From an uncultured Gemmatimonadales bacterium (GTDB lineage Bacteria; Gemmatimonadota; Gemmatimonadetes; Longimicrobiales; RSA9): a stretch of 64,000 bases of DNA. The position numbers and the translations under genes are program-made. Shown here piece after piece: positions 11,910 to 56,365 of the stretch; position 1 is the stretch's first letter; every line of letters starts with the position of its first letter. The DNA lies in assembly GCA_963708135.1 (NCBI GenBank), contig OY970192.1, forward strand, positions 3,264,001 to 3,328,000. The letters run 5' to 3'. The notes beneath the pieces are model-generated. The model was not told the DNA's origin. It did not search any database and worked only from the letters and a program-made list of their open reading frames with translations.

Positions 11910-13832
11910 CTACCTCGCCGGCGGCCTGAACCCCAGCGTCTCCCCGGGGTCCAGCACTTCCTCGCCGACATCGCTGCGGATCCCCTCGACGCCGTCGAAG
12001 ACCTGCAGCGCGAAGGGGACCTTGCCGAAGGGGGCGCTGACCTGGAGGCCGCGCACGGCGGGGCGGACGCGCTCGAACATCTCGCGGGCGATGGCGATGC
12101 CCTCGGCCAGCGCGTGCTCCTTCCCCCTCTCGCTGGCGCGGCGCATCCGGACGAGCACGTCCTCGGGCACGACCACGCCGGGCACCTCGTTGGCGAGGAA
12201 CTCGGCGTTGCGGGCGGAGACGAGCGGCCAGATCCCGGCGACGATCGGGATCCAGATGCCGCGCTTCTCGAGCTCGGCGGTGAAGTCGAGGAGCTGGTCG
12301 GCGTCGAAGACGGGCTGGGTGACGGCGTACTCGGCGCCGGCCTCGACCTTCCAGTAGAAGCGCTCGAGCTCGTGCTCGCGGTCGGCGGCACCGGGATTCA
12401 CGCCGACGCCGATGGCGAAGGATGTCGGCTCGCCGATGGGGTTGCCGCCCGGGTCGAGCCCGTGGTTCAGCCGCACGACCAGGTTGGTGAGGCCGATGGA
12501 GTCGATGTCGAAGACGGCCGTGGACTCCGGGTACGGCCCCATCTTGGGCGGGTCGCCGGTGATGACGAGCAGGTTGCGCAGCCCGAGCGCGTGGGCGCCG
12601 AGCAGGTCGGAGAGCATGCCGAGCAGGTTCCTGTCCCGGCACGAGTAGTGGAGCACGGTCTCGATGCCGACGGTCTGCTCGATGAGCACGGCGGTGGCCA
12701 GCGCGCCCATCCGCATCTGGGCGCGCGGGCCATCCGGCACGTTGACGCCGTCGATGCCCGCGCGCTCGAGCAGCCGCACGCCCGCCAGCATCTTCGCTGG
12801 GCTGATCCCCTTGGGCGGCACGATCTCGACGGTGGTGACCAGCTCGCCGCCGGCGAGCTTCCGCCCCCAGCGCGAGCGGTCCGCCAGCGGCGTCACGGCC
12901 ACGTCGGGGGCGGCGGACTCGGGCCGGCCGACGTGCGTCGAGACGGTGCGCGGCGAAAGGGAGCGCACGGCGTCGCTTATCTGCCGGATGTGGTCGGGCG
13001 TGGTGCCGCAGCAGCCGCCCACGAACTTGACGCCGGCGCGGATGAGGCGCTGCGCGTACTTGGCCACGTACTCGGGCGAGGCCATGTACATCTTGCGGCC
13101 CGAGATCTCGCGCGGCATGCCCGCGTTCGGCTGCGCCGAGAGCTTCCTGCGCGTGACCGCGGCGGCCTTCTCGATCGCATCGAGGATCCCCGCGGGACCG
13201 ACGGAACAGTTGAAGCCGATGACGTCGGCGCCCCACTCGTCGAGCCGGACCGCGCAGACCTCGGGCGTCGTGCCGTACGTGGTCTTGCCGTCCTCCTGCA
13301 CCGTCATCTGCGCAACGACCGGAAACGTGCACGCCTCGCGCACGGCGAGCAGCGCCTCGTGGATCTCCGCGAGGTCGCTGAAGGTCTCGAGCACGAAGAA
13401 CTGCGCGCCACCCTCGAGGAGTCCTTCCGCCTGCTCCCTGAAGAACTCCCGCGCTTCCGCGAGCGATGTCGGCCCGTACGGCTCGATGCGGATCCCGAGC
13501 GGGCCGATCGAGCCGCCCACCAGCGCCCGCTCGCCCGCCGCCTCCCGCGCCACCCGCGCCGCCGCCGCGTTGATCTCGCGCACCTGCGCCTCGAGCCCGT
13601 ACTGCGCGAGCTTCACGCGGTTCGCGCCGAACGAGTTGGTCTCCAGCAGCTCCGCCCCCGCCCGCACGTACTCGCGGTGGACCTGCCGCACGAGATCGGG
13701 ATCGCGCAGGTTCAGCTCGTCATAGCAGCGGTTGATGAAGACCCCCTTCTGGTACAGCATCGTCCCCATCGCGCCGTCGAAGACGTGGGGCCGAGCGTCG
13801 GAGAGGAGGTCGAGGAAGCTGAGCTCAGGCAT
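11910..13832 (-). CDS. yitJ: Bifunctional homocysteine S-methyltransferase / 5,10-methylenetetrahydrofolate reductase
   Basis: FDGAMGT, GFNCSVGP and GGCCGTTP (HMT domain), then VEIVPPKG, HYSCRDRN, ITGDPP and TQPVFD (MTHFR domain). Confidence 0.92.
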   Translation of the reverse strand: MPELSFLDLLSDARPHVFDGAMGTMLYQKGVFINRCYDELNLRDPDLVRQVHREYVRAGAELLETNSFGANRVKLAQYGLEAQVREINAAAARVAREAAGERALVGGSIGPLGIRIEPYGPTSLAEAREFFREQAEGLLEGGAQFFVLETFSDLAEIHEALLAVREACTFPVVAQMTVQEDGKTTYGTTPEVCAVRLDEWGADVIGFNCSVGPAGILDAIEKAAAVTRRKLSAQPNAGMPREISGRKMYMASPEYVAKYAQRLIRAGVKFVGGCCGTTPDHIRQISDAVRSLSPRTVSTHVGRPESAAPDVAVTPLADRSRWGRKLAGGELVTTVEIVPPKGISPAKMLAGVRLLERAGIDGVNVPDGPRAQMRMGALATAVLIEQTVGIETVLHYSCRDRNLLGMLSDLLGAHALGLRNLLVITGDPPKMGPYPESTAVFDIDSIGLTNLVVRLNHGLDPGGNPIGEPTSFAIGVGVNPGAADREHELERFYWKVEAGAEYAVTQPVFDADQLLDFTAELEKRGIWIPIVAGIWPLVSARNAEFLANEVPGVVVPEDVLVRMRRASERGKEHALAEGIAIAREMFERVRPAVRGLQVSAPFGKVPFALQVFDGVEGIRSDVGEEVLDPGETLGFRPPAR

Positions 13833-13853
13833 CAGCCATCTCTCTCAGCAGTT

Positions 13854-13935
13854 CACGCTTTCGCATTCGCATTCGCATTCGCATTCGCATTCGCTTTCGG
13901 CGGTTCGGCGGTTCGGCGGTTCGGCGGTTCGGCGG
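13854..13935. repeat. Tandem hexamers CGC(A/T)TT x7 followed by octamers CGGCGGTT x~5
   Basis: Read directly from the sequence; forms the left arm of an inverted pair with 14463-14490. Confidence 0.9.
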
Positions 13936-13981
13936 CCCCACCCCAGCACGGACGCCGCGCCCGGATTCTGGCACACGCCGC

Positions 13982-14347
13982 TCATTCGCCTCTCCCTTTC
14001 CCTTTCCCCAGCAGTCCCGTGAGCATCGCCACGATCCGGTCCAGCAGCTCGCGCCCGGACCCGAGCTCGGTCTCGTCCGCGAGATGCAGCACTTCGAGGA
14101 CGTCGAGCACCGCCGCGCATTCCGTGGCCGAGCGACGCGCGAAGCGGAAGAACCGCGCCTTGTCCGCCTTGCTGAACTCGCCCGCGCCCTCGGCGATGTT
14201 CAGGGCCATGGACGTCGCGGCGCGCCGGAGCTGGTCGACCAGGTAGCCGTGCCCGGCCGGCAGCCGCTGCACGAGGGCGTTCGCCACGGCCACGAACTCG
14301 ATCGCGGCGCGGTAGACATCCATCTTCTCGTGAAAGAACGTGGGCAT
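13982..14347 (-). CDS. Four helix bundle protein (23S rRNA IVS protein / Avd-like family)
   Basis: HEKMDVYRAAIEF...LVDQLRRAATSMALNIAEGAG...RFFRFARRSATECAAVLD signature; GGAG upstream of the ATG. Confidence 0.92.
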   Translation of the reverse strand: MPTFFHEKMDVYRAAIEFVAVANALVQRLPAGHGYLVDQLRRAATSMALNIAEGAGEFSKADKARFFRFARRSATECAAVLDVLEVLHLADETELGSGRELLDRIVAMLTGLLGKGKGRGE

Positions 14348-14462
14348 GGTTGACTCCCGTGTCGAACATGGCAGCGTGCACCCTACCGCCTCCCGGGGGC
14401 GAGGGGGGCCTCGCCCCGCCTCACCTTCGCCCGCGGAGGGCACCCTCCCCCCGCCCCCGTTT

Positions 14463-14490
14463 CGAAAGCGAAAGCGAAAGCGAAAGCGTG
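14463..14490. repeat. Tandem hexamers (AAAGCG)x4 + TG, inverted relative to 13854-13899
   Basis: Reverse complement is CACGCTTTCGCTTTCGCTTTCGCTTTCG, matching the left arm CACGCTTTCGC... Confidence 0.9.
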
Positions 14491-14509
14491 CCCCGACAGA
14501 CTCGTCCGC

Positions 14510-17500
14510 TTACGCCGAGAAATATTTGGCCTCGGGATGATGCACCACCAGCGCCGCGGTGCTCAGCTCGGGAACGAGCGCGCCGGCCTCGGTGAGCTCC
14601 ATGTCCAGCCGCTCCCTCGCCGGCAGCAGCTCGAAGAGCGTGAAGTGCTGGCGGTGATCCGGGCACGCGGGATAGCCCCACGAGTAGCGCAGCCCGCGGT
14701 CCTCCGGGATCCCCAGCTCGCGGCGGATGCGGCGGTGCAGCCACTCGGCGGCGGCCTCGGCCAGGCGCACGCCGAAGCCGTGCAGGAAATAGCCCTCGCC
14801 GTAGTCGCCGCTCTTCATGAGGGCGGCGGAGCGCTCGAGCAGGCGGTCGCCGATGGTGACGACCTGGAAGGCGACGATGTCGGGGGCCCCGTTCGTGGCG
14901 GGCGCGAAGTAGTCGGCCAGGCAGAGACGGTCGCGGTCGGCCTGGCGTGGGAAGGGGAAGCGCGCGAGCTCGCGGCCGGCGTCGCCGGGAGCGTAGACGA
15001 CGAGATCGTCGCCTGCCGAGGCCGCGGGGAAGAAGCCGTAGGCGGCGCGCGGCGCGAGCAGGCCGGCGGCCTGGACCTCCCGGCGGTAGCGGCGCAGGCG
15101 CGGCTCGAACTCGTCGGTCACGAGCCGCTCCCACTCCTCGCCCTTGGCGTTCCTGGCGCCCCAGTGCAGGCGGTAGAGGGTGTTGAGCTCGATGTCCTCG
15201 TAGAGCTCCGCCAGCGGAGGGCGGTCGAGCACCTTGACGCCGAGGAACGGCGGCCTGGGGATGGCGACATCGCGCGAGGGGCCGCCGCCGTCCCGCGCCG
15301 GCCGGCCCGCCCGGGCGCGCGCCTGGAGCTCGGCGCGCCGGGCCACGCCCTCCCGGACATCCCGCTGCCGGTCGGCGATGAAGCCCTCGCGGCGGCCGGG
15401 ATCGAGCAGCGCGTCCACCGTGGCCAGCCCCTCGAACGCATCCTTGCAGTAGTAGACGCCGGGGGCGTAGAGGGCGCCGGCGTCGCCATCCACGAAGGAG
15501 GCGGCGCGCACGAAGGAGGGGTTGATGGCCGCGCCGCCGACCATGACGGGGAACGAGAGGCCGCGCGCGTGCAGCTCCTGGACGCACAGCGGCATCTGCT
15601 TCGACGTCGAGACGAGCAGCGCGGAGAGGCCGATCACGTCCGCGCCGACCTCCTGGGCGCGCTCGATGATGGTGTTGACCGGGACCTGCTTGCCGAGGTC
15701 GTGGACGGTATAGCCGTTGTTGGAGAGAATGGTGCCGACCAGGCTCTTGCCGATGTCGTGGACATCGCCGAAGACCGTGGCCAGGACGACCTTGCCCTTG
15801 GTCTCGCCTTCGACCTTCTCGAGGAAGGTCTCCAGCCGGGCGACGGCGCGCTTCATGACCTCCGCCGACTGCAGCACGAACGGCAGGATCAGCTCGCCCG
15901 CGCCGAACTTGTCGCCCACCTCCTTCATGGCGGGGAGGAGCACGTGGTTCAGGACGTGGACGGCCGCGCGGTGGGTGGGGCCGGGCCCGCCGGCCCCGCC
16001 GTTCACGCTTTCGCTTTCGCCTTCGCTTTCGCTTTCGATCCGTTCCGATTCCGGATCCAGAATTCGCCGCTGCTTCCCGATTGCCCTTTCCACCAGCTCC
16101 TCCACACCGTCCTTCTTCCGGTGCAGGATCTTCCAGTGGATGGCCTGCTCGGGCTCCATCTCCGCCGTGGGATCGACCGCCTCCTCGGCCTCGGCCTCGT
16201 GGGACTCGTAGAAGGCGATGAAGCGGGCGAGCGCATCCTCGCGGCGGTCGAAGATGAGGTCGTCGGCCAGCGCGCGCTGCTCGGCGTCGATCTCGGCGTA
16301 AGGGGTGATGTGCGCGGGGTTCACGATGGCCATGTCGAGCCCCGCCTCGACGCAGTGGTGCAGGAACACGGAGTTCAGCACCGCGCGCGCGTGGCGGGCC
16401 AGCCCGAAGCTGACGTTCGAGACGCCCAGCGAGGTGAGCACGCCCGGCAGCTCCCGCTTGATCAGCCGGATCCCCTCGATCGTGTCCACCGCGGAGTGGC
16501 GGAACTCGGCGTCGCCGGTGGCGAGCGTGAAGGTCAGCGCATCGAAGATGAGCGCGTCCGGGGCGAGGCCGTACTCCTGGGTCGAGATCTGGTGGATGCG
16601 GTGCGCCACCTCGAGCTTGCGCTCCGCCGTCTTGGCCATCCCCTCCTCGTCGATCGTCAATGCGACGACGGCGGCCCCGTGCTCCACCGCGTACGGCAGC
16701 ACCGCCTCGATGCGCTGCCGCCCGTTCTCCAGGTTGATCGAGTTCACGATCGCGCGGCCGGGGTACTGCTCGAGCGCGGCGCGCACGACGTCGTACTCGG
16801 TGGTGTCCACGACGAGCGGCGCCTCGACCCCCTGCGCGAGCAGCTTCACCAGCGCGCCCATCTGCGCTGCCTCGTCCTGCCGCTCGGTCACGGCCACGCA
16901 CACATCCAGCAGGTGCGCGCCGCCCTCGACCTGGCCGCGCGCGACCTCGAGGATGCCGTCGTAGTCCTCCGCCAGCAGCAGCCGCTTGACCGCGCGCGAG
17001 CCCTGCGCGTTCACCCGCTCGCCGATCAGCGTCGGCGCCGGCTGCTGCGCGAGCGCCGTGGCCGTCATGGCGCTGGCGACGCGGGCCACGTAGGCGACGT
17101 CGCGCGTGCGCGGCTTCTTCCCCCACACGCGTTCCACCACCTGCCGCAGGTGCTCCGGCGTGGTGCCGCAGCAGCCGCCGACCACGTTCACGCCGAGCTG
17201 CTCGACGAACTCGCCGTGCGCCTCCGCCAGCGCCTCCGGCGTGAGCGGATAGACGGCGCAGCCGGCCTCGTTGTGCGGGATGCCGGCGTTCGGGATCACG
17301 CTGATGGGTAGCCGCGTGTTGTCCGAGAGCCAGCGCACGGGCTGGCGCATGTGCTCGGGGCCGGTCGAGCAGTTGAGCCCGATCAGGTCGGCGCCGATCG
17401 CCTCGATGATGACCGTGGCCGCCTCGATGTCCGTGCCCAGCAGCATCCGGCCGGAGGTGTCCAGCGTGACCTGCACCTGCAGCGGCCGCCACGTGCCCAG

Positions 17501-18061
17501 CTCCGCGAGCGCCCGCCGGATCCCCGTCACCTGCGCCTTGACCTCGAGGATGTCCTGGCTGGTCTCGATCAGCAGCACGTCCACGCCGCCCTCGACGAGC
17601 CCCCGCGCCTGCTCGCGGAACACCTCCGCCAGCTCGCCGTACGTGGTGGCGCCGAGCGTCGGATCGGAGGTGCTCGGCAGGAACCCGCTCGGCCCGATGC
17701 TGCCCGCAACGAAGCGCGGCCGCTCCGGCGTGGCGAAGCCATCCGCCACCCGCCGGGCCAGGGAGGCGGCGGCGCGGTTCATCTCGACGATGCGGTCCTC
17801 GAGCCCGTACTCGCGCATGGTGAGGCGGTTGGCGCGGAAGGTGTCGGTCTCGACCACGTCGCAGCCGACCTCCAGGAACGAGGCGTGGATGCCCTCGACC
17901 ACCTCCGGCCTGGAGAAGACCAGGTGGTCGTTGCACCCCTCCAGGCCCGGACCACCGAAGTCGGCGGCCGCGAGCCCCAGCGCCTGGATGCTCGTCCCCA
18001 TGGCGCCGTCGAACACCAGCACGCGCTCCTTCAGCACATCGAGATACCGGCTCTCGCGCAT
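14510..18061 (-). CDS. metH: Cobalamin-dependent methionine synthase
   Basis: FDGAMGT, LNCSTGP, GGCCGT; pterin domain IGERVNAQGS; B12 motif GDVHDIGK..SALL; reactivation domain RYSWGYPACP. Confidence 0.96.
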   Translation of the reverse strand: MRESRYLDVLKERVLVFDGAMGTSIQALGLAAADFGGPGLEGCNDHLVFSRPEVVEGIHASFLEVGCDVVETDTFRANRLTMREYGLEDRIVEMNRAAASLARRVADGFATPERPRFVAGSIGPSGFLPSTSDPTLGATTYGELAEVFREQARGLVEGGVDVLLIETSQDILEVKAQVTGIRRALAELGTWRPLQVQVTLDTSGRMLLGTDIEAATVIIEAIGADLIGLNCSTGPEHMRQPVRWLSDNTRLPISVIPNAGIPHNEAGCAVYPLTPEALAEAHGEFVEQLGVNVVGGCCGTTPEHLRQVVERVWGKKPRTRDVAYVARVASAMTATALAQQPAPTLIGERVNAQGSRAVKRLLLAEDYDGILEVARGQVEGGAHLLDVCVAVTERQDEAAQMGALVKLLAQGVEAPLVVDTTEYDVVRAALEQYPGRAIVNSINLENGRQRIEAVLPYAVEHGAAVVALTIDEEGMAKTAERKLEVAHRIHQISTQEYGLAPDALIFDALTFTLATGDAEFRHSAVDTIEGIRLIKRELPGVLTSLGVSNVSFGLARHARAVLNSVFLHHCVEAGLDMAIVNPAHITPYAEIDAEQRALADDLIFDRREDALARFIAFYESHEAEAEEAVDPTAEMEPEQAIHWKILHRKKDGVEELVERAIGKQRRILDPESERIESESEGESESVNGGAGGPGPTHRAAVHVLNHVLLPAMKEVGDKFGAGELILPFVLQSAEVMKRAVARLETFLEKVEGETKGKVVLATVFGDVHDIGKSLVGTILSNNGYTVHDLGKQVPVNTIIERAQEVGADVIGLSALLVSTSKQMPLCVQELHARGLSFPVMVGGAAINPSFVRAASFVDGDAGALYAPGVYYCKDAFEGLATVDALLDPGRREGFIADRQRDVREGVARRAELQARARAGRPARDGGGPSRDVAIPRPPFLGVKVLDRPPLAELYEDIELNTLYRLHWGARNAKGEEWERLVTDEFEPRLRRYRREVQAAGLLAPRAAYGFFPAASAGDDLVVYAPGDAGRELARFPFPRQADRDRLCLADYFAPATNGAPDIVAFQVVTIGDRLLERSAALMKSGDYGEGYFLHGFGVRLAEAAAEWLHRRIRRELGIPEDRGLRYSWGYPACPDHRQHFTLFELLPARERLDMELTEAGALVPELSTAALVVHHPEAKYFSA
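16001..16041. repeat. Intragenic hexamer repeat (CGCTTT-type) in frame within metH
   Basis: GTTCACGCTTTCGCTTTCGCCTTCGCTTTCGCTTTCGATCC encodes ESESEGESESVN; its first 14 nt are identical to 13851-13864. Confidence 0.85.
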
Positions 18062-18116
18062 CCCCGCCTGCTCCCTGGAAGACTGCCCGCACCCGCGGCC
18101 GGCGCCCCCGGCCAGC

Positions 18117-18150
18117 AAAAAACCCCCGGCCACTCTGAAAGTGCGGGGGT
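18117..18150 (-). terminator. Intrinsic terminator/attenuator in the metH leader
   Basis: RNA ACCCCCG-CACU-UUCAG-AGUG-GC-CGGGGG-UUUUUU, about 55 nt upstream of the metH ATG. Confidence 0.85.
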
Positions 18151-18164
18151 CGCCCTGGGGCGGA

Positions 18165-18297
18165 TCCTTCATCCCGGCACTTTAGCTTTTGTGCGACGAC
18201 GCCGCGAGCGTGCCGGGCTGGGTGCGCCCTCCCTCGCGGTCGTCGTCCGGCGGTAGCAAGCGGCCTGCAAATCCCTCCGCCGGTTCAACCCTTCATC
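18165..18297 (-). ncRNA. Candidate riboswitch aptamer of unrecognised class in the metH 5' leader
   Basis: Two GC-rich stems, an 8-bp loop-to-tail pseudoknot and an AAAAGCUAAA linker, located between a promoter and a terminator, with a competing antiterminator pairing. Confidence 0.7.
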
Positions 18298-18469: not shown

Positions 18470-19392
18470 TCGACACGAAGGGCCCGGAGGGAGCGGAGGG
18501 AACGGACCCCCCCGCGGCACCACCCTGTCCGGCAGCGGGCGCATCGGGATGCCACGCCCACACGGCGACGGACGAGGTCGGGACGCGGGACCTGCTGCGG
18601 TCGGGGCAGGGCAGCGGGGTCGCGGTGGCGCGCGGCGGGTCGCGGGGTGCACAGCCTGCCACTCGCCAACCTCCGGCGCGTGAGGGGCGGCTCGTGCACC
18701 CCAGGCCGGCCCAACTCGCCGCCCGCTTTCTCCGGCTTCATCGAGTGGCGGATCGGGACGGTTCTGCCTGCCCGATCCGACTCTCGTTTCCGCAGCCAGG
18801 ACGAGTGGCGGGTTGTGCAGGGATGAGGTCCCCCGCCCCGGTGCGGCCGATGGCCCGCGGCGCCCGGAGGGGTGCGCGGGCCGCCGAGCCGGAAGGTGAG
18901 CCGCACGGCGTCGGCCTGGATCGTGGAGGAAGAAGGTGGGCAGCCCGAACACACGCATACGCACCCGCGGTGCGACGCCTCAAGAGCCTCTGACGCCTCG
19001 GAGTCCTCCGGCACACCCGAGCCCTCTGACGCCTCGGAGTCCTCCGGCACGCCCGAGCCCTCTGACGCCTCGGAGTCCTCCGGCACGCCCGAGCCCTCTG
19101 GCTCCGCCGAGCCCTCGGACTTCCCCGCGCCCTCCGACGCCCGAGCCCTCCGACGCCCGAGCCCTCCGACGCCCGAGCCCTCCGACGCCCGAGTCCTCTG
19201 ACGCCTCGGAGCCTTCGACGCCCCCCGAGCCCCGGTCCCCAACCCCGAGCCCGCTACCGAGCCCGCGCCCCGCGTCCCCGAGCCCGCGCCCCCGAGCCCG
19301 CGCCCCGGGCGCGAGCCAGATCCCGATCCCGATCCCGATCCCGATCCCGATCCCGATCCCGATCCCGAGCCCCGATCCCGAGCCCCGAGCCC
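18470..19392. repeat. Composite intergenic repeat region
   Basis: 9-mer arm at 18470-18506; CCACTCG/CGAGTGG-type copies at 18645-18819; 36-bp unit x3 from 18987; 16-bp unit GAGCCCTCCGACGCCC x3 from 19143; (GATCCC)x8 at 19319-19366. Confidence 0.85.
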
Positions 19393-19438
19393 CGCGGCCC
19401 GGCTCCCGCGCCCATGGTAGCGGAGCGCCTCCGCTCTC

Positions 19439-30591: not shown

Positions 30592-30627
30592 GCCGGCCGC
30601 ATCCCCCACTCCCCCACTCTCCCACTC
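30592..30627. repeat. 36-bp dispersed repeat, identical to 50470-50505
   Basis: GCCGGCCGCATCCCCCACTCCCCCACTCTCCCACTC present at both sites. Confidence 0.9.
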
Positions 30628-30652
30628 CGGGAACGGGCGGGCGAGGGGAGGC

Positions 30653-33698: not shown

Positions 33699-34031
33699 CC
33701 CCGAGCCCCGAGCCCCGAGCCCCGCACCCCGCACCCCATCAGCATCCCGTTATATGGCTCCTTGCTGTCTCACGTGGGTTCCGCCGGCCGGTGGCGGCTC
33801 CGAAACCCGTGTGCGGGTGCGTGTGCGTGTGCGAAGGTTCGTGCCCGCATCCCGCTTGCCGGATCCGCTTGCGCTTGCGGCCTGAGGCGGTGGTAGGAAG
33901 CACGGGGACGTAAGACGAAACCGCGTGAACCGCGGGCACGGGCCCGCGCCCGCAACAGCGGGAGGCGCGCAGGTGGCGCGCACACGCACACGCACACGAG
34001 GGCGGAGCCGCACCCGCACCCGCACACGGGT
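33699..34031. repeat. Heptamer run plus nested inverted repeats with hexamer arms (MITE-like, no ORF)
   Basis: CCCCG(AG/CA) x5 at 33699-33737; perfect 17-bp IR 33805-33821 / 34015-34031; inner IR 33836-33848 / 33932-33944. Confidence 0.75.
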
Positions 34032-50234: not shown

Positions 50235-50505
50235 GGAGTGGGGGCGTGGGAGAGTGGGGGACGGGGCGGCTCCGGAGGCGCACCGCGCGCCGCCCGGACC
50301 CGAAAGCGGTCCGCGGCGTACGCGCGTTCGGCGGACGGCGACGCTGGCGCGCGCGGGTTCCGCGGACGGCGGCGCGGCGCGCGTGTTCCGGACGATGCCG
50401 ACGCCGGCGCCGGACCCGCGCGCGCCGCGCACGGCGCCGCGCCCGGAAAAGCCCGAGGGACGCCGCGAAGCCGGCCGCATCCCCCACTCCCCCACTCTCC
50501 CACTC
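50235..50505. repeat. Inverted pair of octamer-type repeats (GGGAGAGT / ACTCTCCC)
   Basis: 50235-50261 GGAGTGGGGGCGTGGGAGAGTGGGGGA versus 50480-50505 TCCCCCACTCCCCCACTCTCCCACTC. Confidence 0.8.
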
Positions 50506-55430: not shown

Positions 55431-55752
55431 GCGGCGCCGGGTGCACGACTCGCCACTCGTCACTCGGGCGCCTTTCCGCAGGGGGGTCCGACGCGACGAT
55501 CGGGCGGCGCCGGGTGCACGACTCGCCACTCGTCACTCGGGCGCCTTTCCGCAGGGGGGTCCGACGCGACGATCGGGCGGCGCCGGGTGCACGACTCGCC
55601 ACTCGTCACTTGGGCGCTCCGCTGGGGTCCGGCGCGACGTTCAGGCGGCGCCGGGTGCGCAACTCGCCACTCGTCAAACGGGCGTTCCGCTGGGGTCCGA
55701 CGCGACGTTCAGGCGGCGCCGGGTGCGCAACTCGCCACTCGTCAAACGGGCG
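55431..55752. repeat. Tandem array of 68-73-bp units with core GCGGCGCCGGGTGC(A/G)C(G/A)ACTCGCCACTCGTCA
   Basis: Unit starts at 55431, 55504, 55577, 55645 and 55713; units 1 and 2 are identical; degenerate copies continue to about 55894. Confidence 0.9.
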
Positions 55753-56030
55753 CGAGCGGCGGCCGGGTTCTGCACCCCTGGCCAGCAGAAGCCACCACTC
55801 GTCCGGGCGCCGGAAATCGAGCGGCGCCTCAGGCTCGTGGGCCCGTCCCAACCCACCACCCGCTTCCCGATCGGCCCCGAGTGGCGGGTTGTGCCGGCTC
55901 ACGCCGCTGATCCGGCGTACGCCGGGCGATGCGTGGGGACGTGCCAGCCCCTCGGCCTGCCGCCCGGCTCGAGCCTGTGCGCAGAATGCGCGCTCCTCGA
56001 TGCGCGCCTCGGCCTCGGCGGCAACGCCGT

Positions 56031-56365
56031 TCTCCGTTGCCTCCGTTCCCTTCGAGCCCTCGGTTTCAAGGCGGTTCTTGAACCCCGAATCGCCCGGCGG
56101 CCGGAAGACCCCCGCGGCCGGAGACCCCCGCGGCCGGAGACCCCCGCGGCCGGAGACCCCCGGCGGCCGGAAGACCCCTCGCGATCGGAAGGCCCCCGGC
56201 GGTCGGCCCCGGTGGTTGAAAGACCCCCGGCGGGCGGAAGACCCCCGCGATCGGAAGCCCCCCCGGCGCCGACGACCCCCGCGATCGGAAGCCGCCCCGG
56301 CGCCGACGACCCCCCGCGGCCGGAAGGCCCCGGCGGCCGGAAGCCCCCGGCGCCCGAGCGCCCCC
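56031..56365. repeat. 9-mer arm followed by 16-19-bp tandem repeats (CGGCCGGAGACCCCCG and variants)
   Basis: 56031-56069 matches the family at 3576-3614 in reverse; more than 10 degenerate units lie at 56095-56365. Confidence 0.8.

Follow-up and report, generated by a model that had tools for sequence, protein, structure and literature searches.

Ever since the early 1990s it has been asked what the open reading frame (ORF) in 23S rRNA intervening sequences (IVSs) does. Here we describe a comparable element in a 64-kb stretch of the 5.4-Mb genome of an uncultured Gemmatimonadales bacterium (assembly GCA_963708135.1, contig OY970192.1, positions 3,264,001 to 3,328,000; the whole stretch is called the window), in which a four-helix-bundle (4HB) gene is enclosed by two inverted arrays of short tandem repeats between metH and yitJ. 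In Coxiella, the 23S IVS was reported to form a 28-bp terminal-inverted-repeat stem that is cut by RNase III, to hold a 4HB (S23p) ORF in the loop, and to contain tandem GACAGAT heptamers in a strain-variable copy number; that paper calls the function and origin of the IVS unclear (PMC4990558). The IVSs of Coxiella, Leptospira, and locus L092 (see below) resemble the cassette of the window in the protein family encoded in the loop, a stem of ~20-30 bp, short tandem repeats in or near the arms, and a size of 430-640 nt. In contrast, they lie in helix 25 or 45 of 23S rRNA, whereas the window's copy lies between two protein-coding operon genes and, unlike them, has pure hexamer arrays as arms. 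RNase III excision has been shown for the rRNA elements; for the cassette of the window it is proposed by analogy.

Tandem heptamer arrays of heterocystous cyanobacteria are named STRR. The GGGAATC heptamers of Xanthomonas were described as intergenic, often forming convergent pairs capable of folding into stem-loops, and located close behind the upstream ORF (PMC4692102). One such array begins 6 nt after bccP and overlaps the start of XCC0516 (PMC4692102 supplement file 2, row 27), which is the crystallised 4HB protein 2GSC, although the accessible part of the paper draws no connection between the arrays and 4HB genes. Both kinds of arrays share with the cassette the intergenic tandem 6- to 9-mers in often convergent pairs, but they use one unit genome-wide, whereas the unit of 4HB cassettes varies by locus and species. 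Diversity-generating retroelements (DGRs) encode Avd, a protein of similar fold, but also carry a reverse transcriptase and template/variable repeats, none of which was found near the window's 4HB gene. Among palindromic elements, those of Rickettsia (Rickettsia palindromic elements) insert in frame into genes. Together with foldback and miniature inverted-repeat elements, they resemble the cassette in their terminal inverted repeats of tandem sub-repeats, presence/absence polymorphism, and an in-frame array copy (here in metH). Within the 64 kb of the 5.4-Mb genome, no multi-copy family with shared ends, target-site duplication, or transposase was seen, and the cassette further differs from these elements by its conserved protein gene. 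Its components have each been described before, as rRNA IVSs and as inverted heptamer arrays in Xanthomonas. A full-text literature search, with most subscription journals outside its coverage, found no paper linking non-rRNA 4HB genes with flanking inverted tandem arrays or treating them as operon-embedded cassettes.

A repeat-bounded cassette between metH and yitJ

In operon sense, the metH stop codon is followed by a 20-nt spacer, the 5' arm, a 115-nt G-rich leader, the 4HB ORF with a decayed array in its end, an octamer array, the 3' arm, and 21 nt before the yitJ start codon (Table 1). The encoded protein, P0001, scored 77.5 bits against PF05635 (cut-off 33.8) and 75.1 bits against TIGR02436 (cut-off 24) and thus belongs to this family. 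The flanking genes likewise matched their families, in line with the initial annotation, which had been made from the letters and their ORFs; the TIGR02082 match of metH starts at residue 47, and an internal ATG near 18064 may be its true start. The insertion site is not a 23S rRNA gene, since Rfam at gathering thresholds gave 0 matches in the whole window (G+C content 72.9%) and therefore no rRNA; no tRNAs were found either.

Positions 13854-13881 and 14463-14490 form a 28-nt inverted repeat that is 89% complementary, with the outer 11 nt identical, so that the bracketing arrays with identical outer ends described initially are real. Terminal inverted repeats forming a stem of at least about 20 bp around an ORF, which characterize both IVSs and foldback elements, are therefore present. 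Tandem Repeats Finder (TRF) reported 7.3 hexamer copies over 13856-13899 and, with 100% matches, 4.3 over 14463-14488. When the two 300-nt flanks of the 4HB gene were compared for ungapped inverted matches, the top score was 19, compared with a maximum of 16 and a 99th percentile of 14 for 1500 random pseudo-cassettes taken from 1.24 Mb of related DNA. The arm pair was the outermost closing helix in both the minimum-free-energy and the centroid RNA folds, and the arm duplex reached -47.0 kcal/mol compared to -22.7 ± 4.9 kcal/mol for shuffled partners.

Table 1. Coordinates of features in the metH-yitJ region of the window, with repeat units of the arms and MetH-loop arrays in related and plasmid loci
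Feature	Sequence	Position	Strand	Description
metH	window	14510..18172	-	upstream flank of cassette; TIGR02082 at 1089 bits
Arm-array copy in metH	window	16006..16037	-	codes ESESEGESES in B12-cap domain loop; TRF period 6, 5.3 copies
5' arm (operon sense)	window	14463..14490	-	CACGC then (TTTCGC)n
G-rich leader	window	14348..14462	-	5' arm to start codon; local hairpin of 14394-14406 with 14447-14459 (inverted repeat); GGGAG Shine-Dalgarno-like motif upstream of ATG
4HB gene	window	13982..14347	-	121 aa + stop; PF05635/TIGR02436 family
Degenerate hexamer array in 3' end of 4HB gene	window	13989..14008	-	(CCTTTC) x3.3, TRF period 6; codes GKGKGRG of GKGKGRGE tail
Octamer array	window	13896..13935	-	TTCGGCGG x5 = (CCGCCGAA) x5 in operon sense; between gene and 3' arm
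3' arm (operon sense)	window	13854..13899	-	(GCGAAT)n, GCGAAAG units at either end
yitJ	window	11910..13832	-	downstream flank; yitJ-type bifunctional homocysteine S-methyltransferase / methylenetetrahydrofolate reductase (MTHFR); NF006396 at 720 bits
Arm unit	window			CGCTTT/GCGAAT
Arm unit	L001			CCGCCT/GCGGAG
Arm unit	L013, L018, L019			GGGCTG/CCCCAG
Arm unit	L014			nonamer AGGCTAGTC/GACTAGCCT
Arm unit	L015			GGGTCTG/CCAGACT
Arm unit	L022			compound TCGGGA+CGTAAA, mirrored ACGTTT+CGATCC
Arm unit	L030			CCCTTG/AGGGCA
Arm units (inverted tandem heptamers/octamers)	cyanobacterial plasmids			GGGTGTA, TAGGGAG, GGTGACA, GGGAAAA
Arm unit	Riemerella plasmid			AAGGTTC
Arm unit	Gemmatirosa plasmid			GGGCAGGA
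MetH-loop array	L009			insert RERDRER
MetH-loop array	L013	2669-2825		insert AGAGAG...PSPSPS
MetH-loop array	L014	7532-7597		insert NQANQANQ
MetH-loop array	L015	7887-7980		
MetH-loop array	L024	7918-7933		
MetH-loop array	L026	7835-7868		insert SNSNSN

The octamer run beside the left arm and the origin of the GKGKGRGE tail from hexamers, both pointed out initially, were recovered as well. Units of the in-gene array are one base off the 3'-arm unit type; with one mismatch per unit allowed, the array came up as inverted relative to the 5' arm and able to pair with it. No complementary partner was found for the octamer array, whose duplex with the 5' arm (-20.2 kcal/mol) was no stronger than that of shuffled sequences (-26.2 kcal/mol). 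As claimed at the outset, no transposase or reverse transcriptase was detected, nor any integrase, in a Pfam scan of 54 window ORFs (at least 110 aa and GC3 of at least 0.80). Neither a sigma-70-like promoter nor an intrinsic terminator was found in a scan of 13700-14700, the vicinity of the 4HB gene has no long direct repeat pair, and PADLOC returned no match. CRISPR, retron, and DGR repeats were dropped as explanations, there being no spacers and no reverse transcriptase, and a telomere-like addition model was dropped because the units differ between loci of one genome.

Since the layout is that of a 23S rRNA IVS and the arms pair in the folds, we take the element, with moderate confidence, to be an IVS-type cassette in an mRNA operon, that is, a PF05635 gene within two terminal inverted arms of short tandem repeats. 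In the operon transcript the arms would pair into a ~28-bp stem at the base of the cassette. By analogy with the rRNA elements, this stem is probably an RNase III processing site, and cleavage would release the RNA of the cassette, leaving metH and yitJ on separate messages. Slippage in the arrays and template switching between the arms would keep the arms matched, and the same copying at the DNA level may have seeded the related array in metH.

Recurrence, arm turnover, and inheritance

A scan of genome contigs with YitJ yielded 80 loci (labels such as L001 denote these relatives and the plasmid stretches below), mostly titled Gemmatimonadota and four Acidobacteria/Blastocatellia. The best match was only 85% identical, so the window's own species is outside that collection. 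The end of metH is followed by yitJ in 63 of the 81 sequences (80 loci and the window). Among the 29 comparable, Longimicrobiales-type junctions (MetH C-terminus at least 55% identical to the window's), the spacer holds a 4HB gene at 14 (window, L001, L010, L011, L013, L014, L015, L018, L019, L022, L024, L026, L027, and L030), and the empty sites that the initial annotation had proposed to look for were found at the other 15, four of them with spacers of 2-15 nt (L016, L023, L025, and L029). None of the other 34 junctions, which are Gemmatimonadales-type, has a 4HB gene, and 29 of these spacers are 40 nt or shorter. An iterated profile search of all stop-to-stop ORFs of the 1.24 Mb recovered 18 clear 4HB genes, every one adjoining yitJ, with 14 upstream and 4 just downstream (L028, L044, L057, and L064). 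At occupied junctions the inverted tandem arrays start ~0-25 nt from the metH stop in most loci and end near the yitJ start. The gene and both arms are a discrete presence/absence unit that fills the whole spacer between metH stop and yitJ start, and the cassette is an old resident of this site in Longimicrobiales. The 4HB reading frames of three long-contig metagenome-assembled genomes (L014, L019, and L027) are broken or truncated, by real decay or assembly indels. The junction gene of two Gemmatimonadaceae loci, L068 (2659-4005) and L076 (8655-10001), was rejected as a candidate: it lacks inverted arms and encodes an unrelated protein of 447 aa that is prenyltransferase / squalene-hopene-cyclase-like.

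The flanking inverted repeats of 16 of the 18 Gemmatimonadota 4HB genes scored 17-41 (arms of 19-50 nt), all above the control maximum. The units are hexamers in the window and 6- to 9-mers among relatives (Table 1). When each left flank was compared with each right flank (14 x 14 matrix), the highest score fell on the cognate flank in 14/14 rows (median score 24.5 compared to 9 for non-cognate pairs), and cross-matches occurred only among the three loci with GGGCTG. The arms thus alter their sequence between species yet remain mutually complementary, the comparative signature of a stem retained under sequence turnover. In L001 and L030, an interruption of one arm is mirrored by the other. The initial proposal that the arms can pair in mRNA accords with both this co-variation and the predicted folds.

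A tblastn search of plasmids with the L044 4HB protein gave 33 records, mostly Nostocales, from which 16 were taken by rank and taxonomic spread and hence non-randomly. P0001 itself had no tblastn match among plasmids, and the L044 protein had none among phages. The flank scores of 11 of the 16 plasmid genes were 14-31, above all 20 neighbour genes of the same loci (maximum 13; Mann-Whitney p = 7e-5), and these armed copies span cyanobacteria, Bacteroidota, Gemmatimonadota, and Alphaproteobacteria. Their arms often abut the start and stop codons, and the genes are found between cas6/cas4, cmr2/cmr3, nrdB/nrdA (on the opposite strand), and parA/parB. The 4HB gene of Azospirillum lipoferum (L092) is inside an LSU rRNA gene (Rfam RF02541) and is accordingly a classical IVS; its arms have a heptamer period of GAC[AG]GA type. 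Homologues in four phyla, one of them in a true 23S rRNA IVS, are thus enclosed in the same way. The outcome that would have spoken against the cassette, a gene syntenic in relatives without repeats and bare homologues elsewhere, was not what we found, since the gene is syntenic with its repeats and most homologues elsewhere are also flanked.

An empty site exists for one plasmid locus: Picosynechococcus PCC 7003 has the cassette between cmr2 and cmr3, whereas in PCC 7002, with flanks 92.5% identical, 12 nt separate the cmr2 stop from the cmr3 ATG (junction read by eye). No related plasmid was found for the same comparison at the Nostoc edaphicum nrdB-nrdA locus. By eye, all ten plasmid loci with clear arms (among L081-L092) have the G-/purine-rich version of the repeat ahead of the 4HB ORF, read on the sense strand of the ORF, and the C-rich version behind it; the polarity is opposite in the window, L001, and L030.

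The supported groups of the 4HB tree (L010+L024, L011+L022, L026+L027, and L044+L057+L064) all recur in the YitJ tree, and the grouping of the window's gene with its nearest relative, L001, is likewise found in both, suggesting that over short distances the gene descends with its host. In the host (YitJ) tree, empty and occupied junctions are interleaved. Locus L004 has no 4HB gene, yet has GTTTACG arrays in common with its occupied relatives L011 and L022, a pattern consistent with the gene having been lost while the arms stayed in place. Proteins of other phyla nested within a grade of junction genes in a 46-row tree, and one clade of junction genes was not rejected by the approximately unbiased test (p = 0.123; L014, L019, and L027, which are frameshifted or partial, and L028 left out); a 137-row FastTree tree was set aside because its resolution was too poor. 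On the best reading, the cassette is inherited mostly vertically and has been lost repeatedly. The initial annotation had suggested a mobile cassette. Its character as one unit stands, given the occupied and empty junctions and the PCC 7003/7002 pair, whereas recent mobility at this site is not supported, the gene tree tracking the host where resolved.

Weighing RNA-level and DNA-level roles of the arms

Several observations weigh against an IVS-type cassette acting in the mRNA. The fold of the entire 677-nt spacer was no better than those of shuffles (z = -0.54). Among 110 arm mismatches in 27 loci, 26 were G.T and 24 A.C, and this lack of wobble bias gives no sign of selection on sense RNA, whereas 3/3 arm mismatches of the true rRNA IVS in L092 were G.T. 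In L013, L044, L057, and L083, an intact 4HB gene (dN/dS of 0.16 for L044/L057) runs antisense to the operon around it, so that its expression there cannot depend on the operon transcript. Clear arms were absent from 2 of the 18 Gemmatimonadota genes (L026, marginal with a score of 12; L064, none, 9) and from 5 of the 16 plasmid genes, namely L086 and L095 (PCC 7120, transposase on one side) and L093, L094, and L096, which have 9-12-nt complementary ends only. Conversely, inverted arrays occur without a 4HB gene in L002, L004, L007, L008, L009, and the window (33807-34030), and in L052 an inverted array pair surrounds a DUF167/YggU gene that comes after yggT. P0001 shares 59-70% identity with proteins that carry the labels Gemmataceae, Polyangiaceae, and Deltaproteobacteria, but only 39-51% with the products of most genes at this site within its order; strict vertical descent is thus not established. 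Finally, RNase III cleavage of the stem is proposed by analogy with 23S rRNA IVSs only.

Some of these points would be expected from ordinary co-occurrence, in which hairpins of inverted simple repeats are general in these genomes, as mRNA stabilisers or terminators, and the methionine operon has in the 4HB gene a stable accessory member that lies between two of them by chance. The 1.24 Mb contained 47 inverted array pairs compared to 21 direct ones, many with gene-free loops of 10-150 nt, and arm-only junctions occur in the five relatives just listed. The window has further inverted pairs at 33807-34030 and 50236-50505, all 18 clear 4HB genes of the 1.24 Mb adjoin yitJ, and 70-75 convergent GGGAATC array pairs per genome are given for Xanthomonas (PMC4692102). 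We nevertheless consider co-occurrence quite unlikely, since the association is specific: the 16 and 11 armed genes exceed every control, inverted arrays 350-750 nt apart enclose a 4HB gene at 10 of 12 places, and the link spans four phyla, unrelated operons, and a 23S rRNA gene.

The main rival to an IVS-type cassette is a DNA-level role of the arms. The element could be a mobile or foldback-type one, with arms serving as DNA hairpins or cruciforms in insertion, excision, and inversion, the 4HB protein as cargo or mobility cofactor, and RNA pairing as incidental. This alternative, which we hold to be possible but doubtful, draws on the array copy in metH, 1.5 kb from the cassette. This copy shares the flank GCGTGAAC with the 3' arm and is complementary to the 5' arm over ~28 nt (duplex -56.5 compared to -25.8 ± 3.9 kcal/mol for shuffled sequences). 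The B12-cap loop of MetH is a variable insertion site in relatives, with species-specific in-frame tandem arrays (Table 1), and has no insert in L016, L025, and L029, whose junctions are also tight. The in-metH arrays mostly share the unit of the junction arms of their own genome (L013, L014, L024, and L026; L001 more loosely, with one-mismatch matches), indicating that arrays are copied locally at the DNA level. A complete inverted array pair was seen within the metH coding sequence of L013 and L015.

A DNA-level element would also account for the discrete presence and absence of the gene with both arms, the inverted 4HB gene between unchanged arms in L013, the symmetric G.T and A.C mismatches, the close homologues in other phyla, and the wedging of 4HB genes into plasmid operons. 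It is opposed by the lack of transposase, integrase, and reverse transcriptase among the scanned ORFs and of a target-site duplication visible by eye at the arm ends. Moreover, the arms differ at each locus, without a family of identical ends; the window holds one cassette and one arm-array copy in metH but no second cassette; and the gene tree tracks the host tree where resolved.

Other repeats of the window and its relatives are recorded here for completeness. The inverted hexamer pair 33807-33834 / 33979-34030 (CGTGTG/GGGTGC types; outer ends CCCGTGTGCGGGTGCG identical; ~145 nt inside) lies in the spacer that separates a PDZ-protease gene from an RDD-family gene. No 4HB gene is enclosed, and the pair is closely preceded by (CCCCGAG) x3.7 at 33699-33724. 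A divergent intergenic region holds inverted octamer arrays GAGTGGGA/TCCCCCAC 220 nt apart (50236-50258 / 50480-50505), and the octamer array recurs 20 kb off at 30602-30628. The inverted pairs of the window differ in unit (CGCTTT; CGTGTG/GTGCGG; GAGTGGGA/TCCCCCAC), so no single unit is shared genome-wide. In the spacer before a BacA gene, a 68-nt unit is repeated 4.6 times in tandem with 92% matches (55431-55753), and 56093-56364 is a block of 17/52-nt repeats. Just upstream of metH, 18987-19413 is dense in 36-nt, 16-nt, and hexamer repeats (CCCGAG x23, GATCCC x8), and the overlapping ORFs had no Pfam match. In L052 (1-5900), several spacers are filled by very long octamer arrays of GGGGGAAC-type units, the longest with 27.9 copies. 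Inverted pairs of heptamer arrays with short loops (10-150 nt), and with a unit per locus, are common in Gemmatimonadales/Blastocatellia (L035-L038, L042, L047, and L071).

The protein and the significance of the cassette

The AlphaFold2 model of P0001 (pLDDT 93.9) has helices at residues 10-28, 34-56, 60-86, and 92-117, with TM-scores of 0.85-0.92 to 2GSC (XCC0516) and 0.76-0.89 to 2RLD (BT_0352); the phmmer match to 2GSC had E = 1.8e-11. The fold is also similar to that of DGR Avd (8UBE, 8UBB, and 4DWL chains; TM 0.74-0.87) at 10-11% identity. The window's gene and its L001 orthologue gave a dN/dS of 0.24, and values in 7 4HB pairs were 0.16-0.50 with dS near saturation in most. The 4HB protein is under purifying selection, while its genes evolve ~3x faster than YitJ (median tip length 0.45 compared to 0.15). 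Dipeptide-repeat C-terminal tails occurred in 48 of 120 close P0001 homologues (GS 21, GT 21) and a run in the core in 1/120, so that extension of the ORF into hexamer arrays is a trait of the P0001 subfamily.

A pentamer has been reported for XCC0516 and Avd. A 4HB pentamer might bind RNA (or DNA) from the stem or repeats of the cassette that encodes it, either controlling its own expression or processing or recruiting a polymerase to copy the cassette or lengthen the arrays. The structural kinship with Avd would suit such binding, as would the rapid evolution of 4HB genes while the arms turn over too; Avd is described as a positively charged pentamer acting with a reverse transcriptase, with 'Avd-binding stem-loops' in DGR spacer RNA (bioRxiv 10.1101/2023.10.23.563531). 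We regard binding as highly improbable, given that arm-only elements with other units occur in the same window without a cognate gene and that no reverse transcriptase was found among the scanned ORFs. A wider conjecture, which we consider unlikely, is that PF05635 genes everywhere are cargo of one ancient class of stem-loop cassettes in rRNA genes and mRNA operons of at least four phyla. Their pentamer would bind its own repeat-built stem, as Avd does with DGR RNA, and would drive spread or templated growth and matching of the arms, which would make the rRNA IVS a special case of a general selfish RNA/DNA element.

The finding joins two separately noted oddities, inverted pairs of 6- to 9-mer arrays and 'S23 ribosomal protein' genes. 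The non-rRNA copies of the family, previously without context, retain the defining architecture of the rRNA elements, which gives both a common frame. They form insert-like units in met, cas, cmr, nrd, and par operons, and in an acc operon by a published table. Picosynechococcus PCC 7003 and PCC 7002 are a natural and cultivable pair with and without the cassette. Should the stem prove to be cut by RNase III, cassettes of this kind would offer a way to cleave operon transcripts at defined points.

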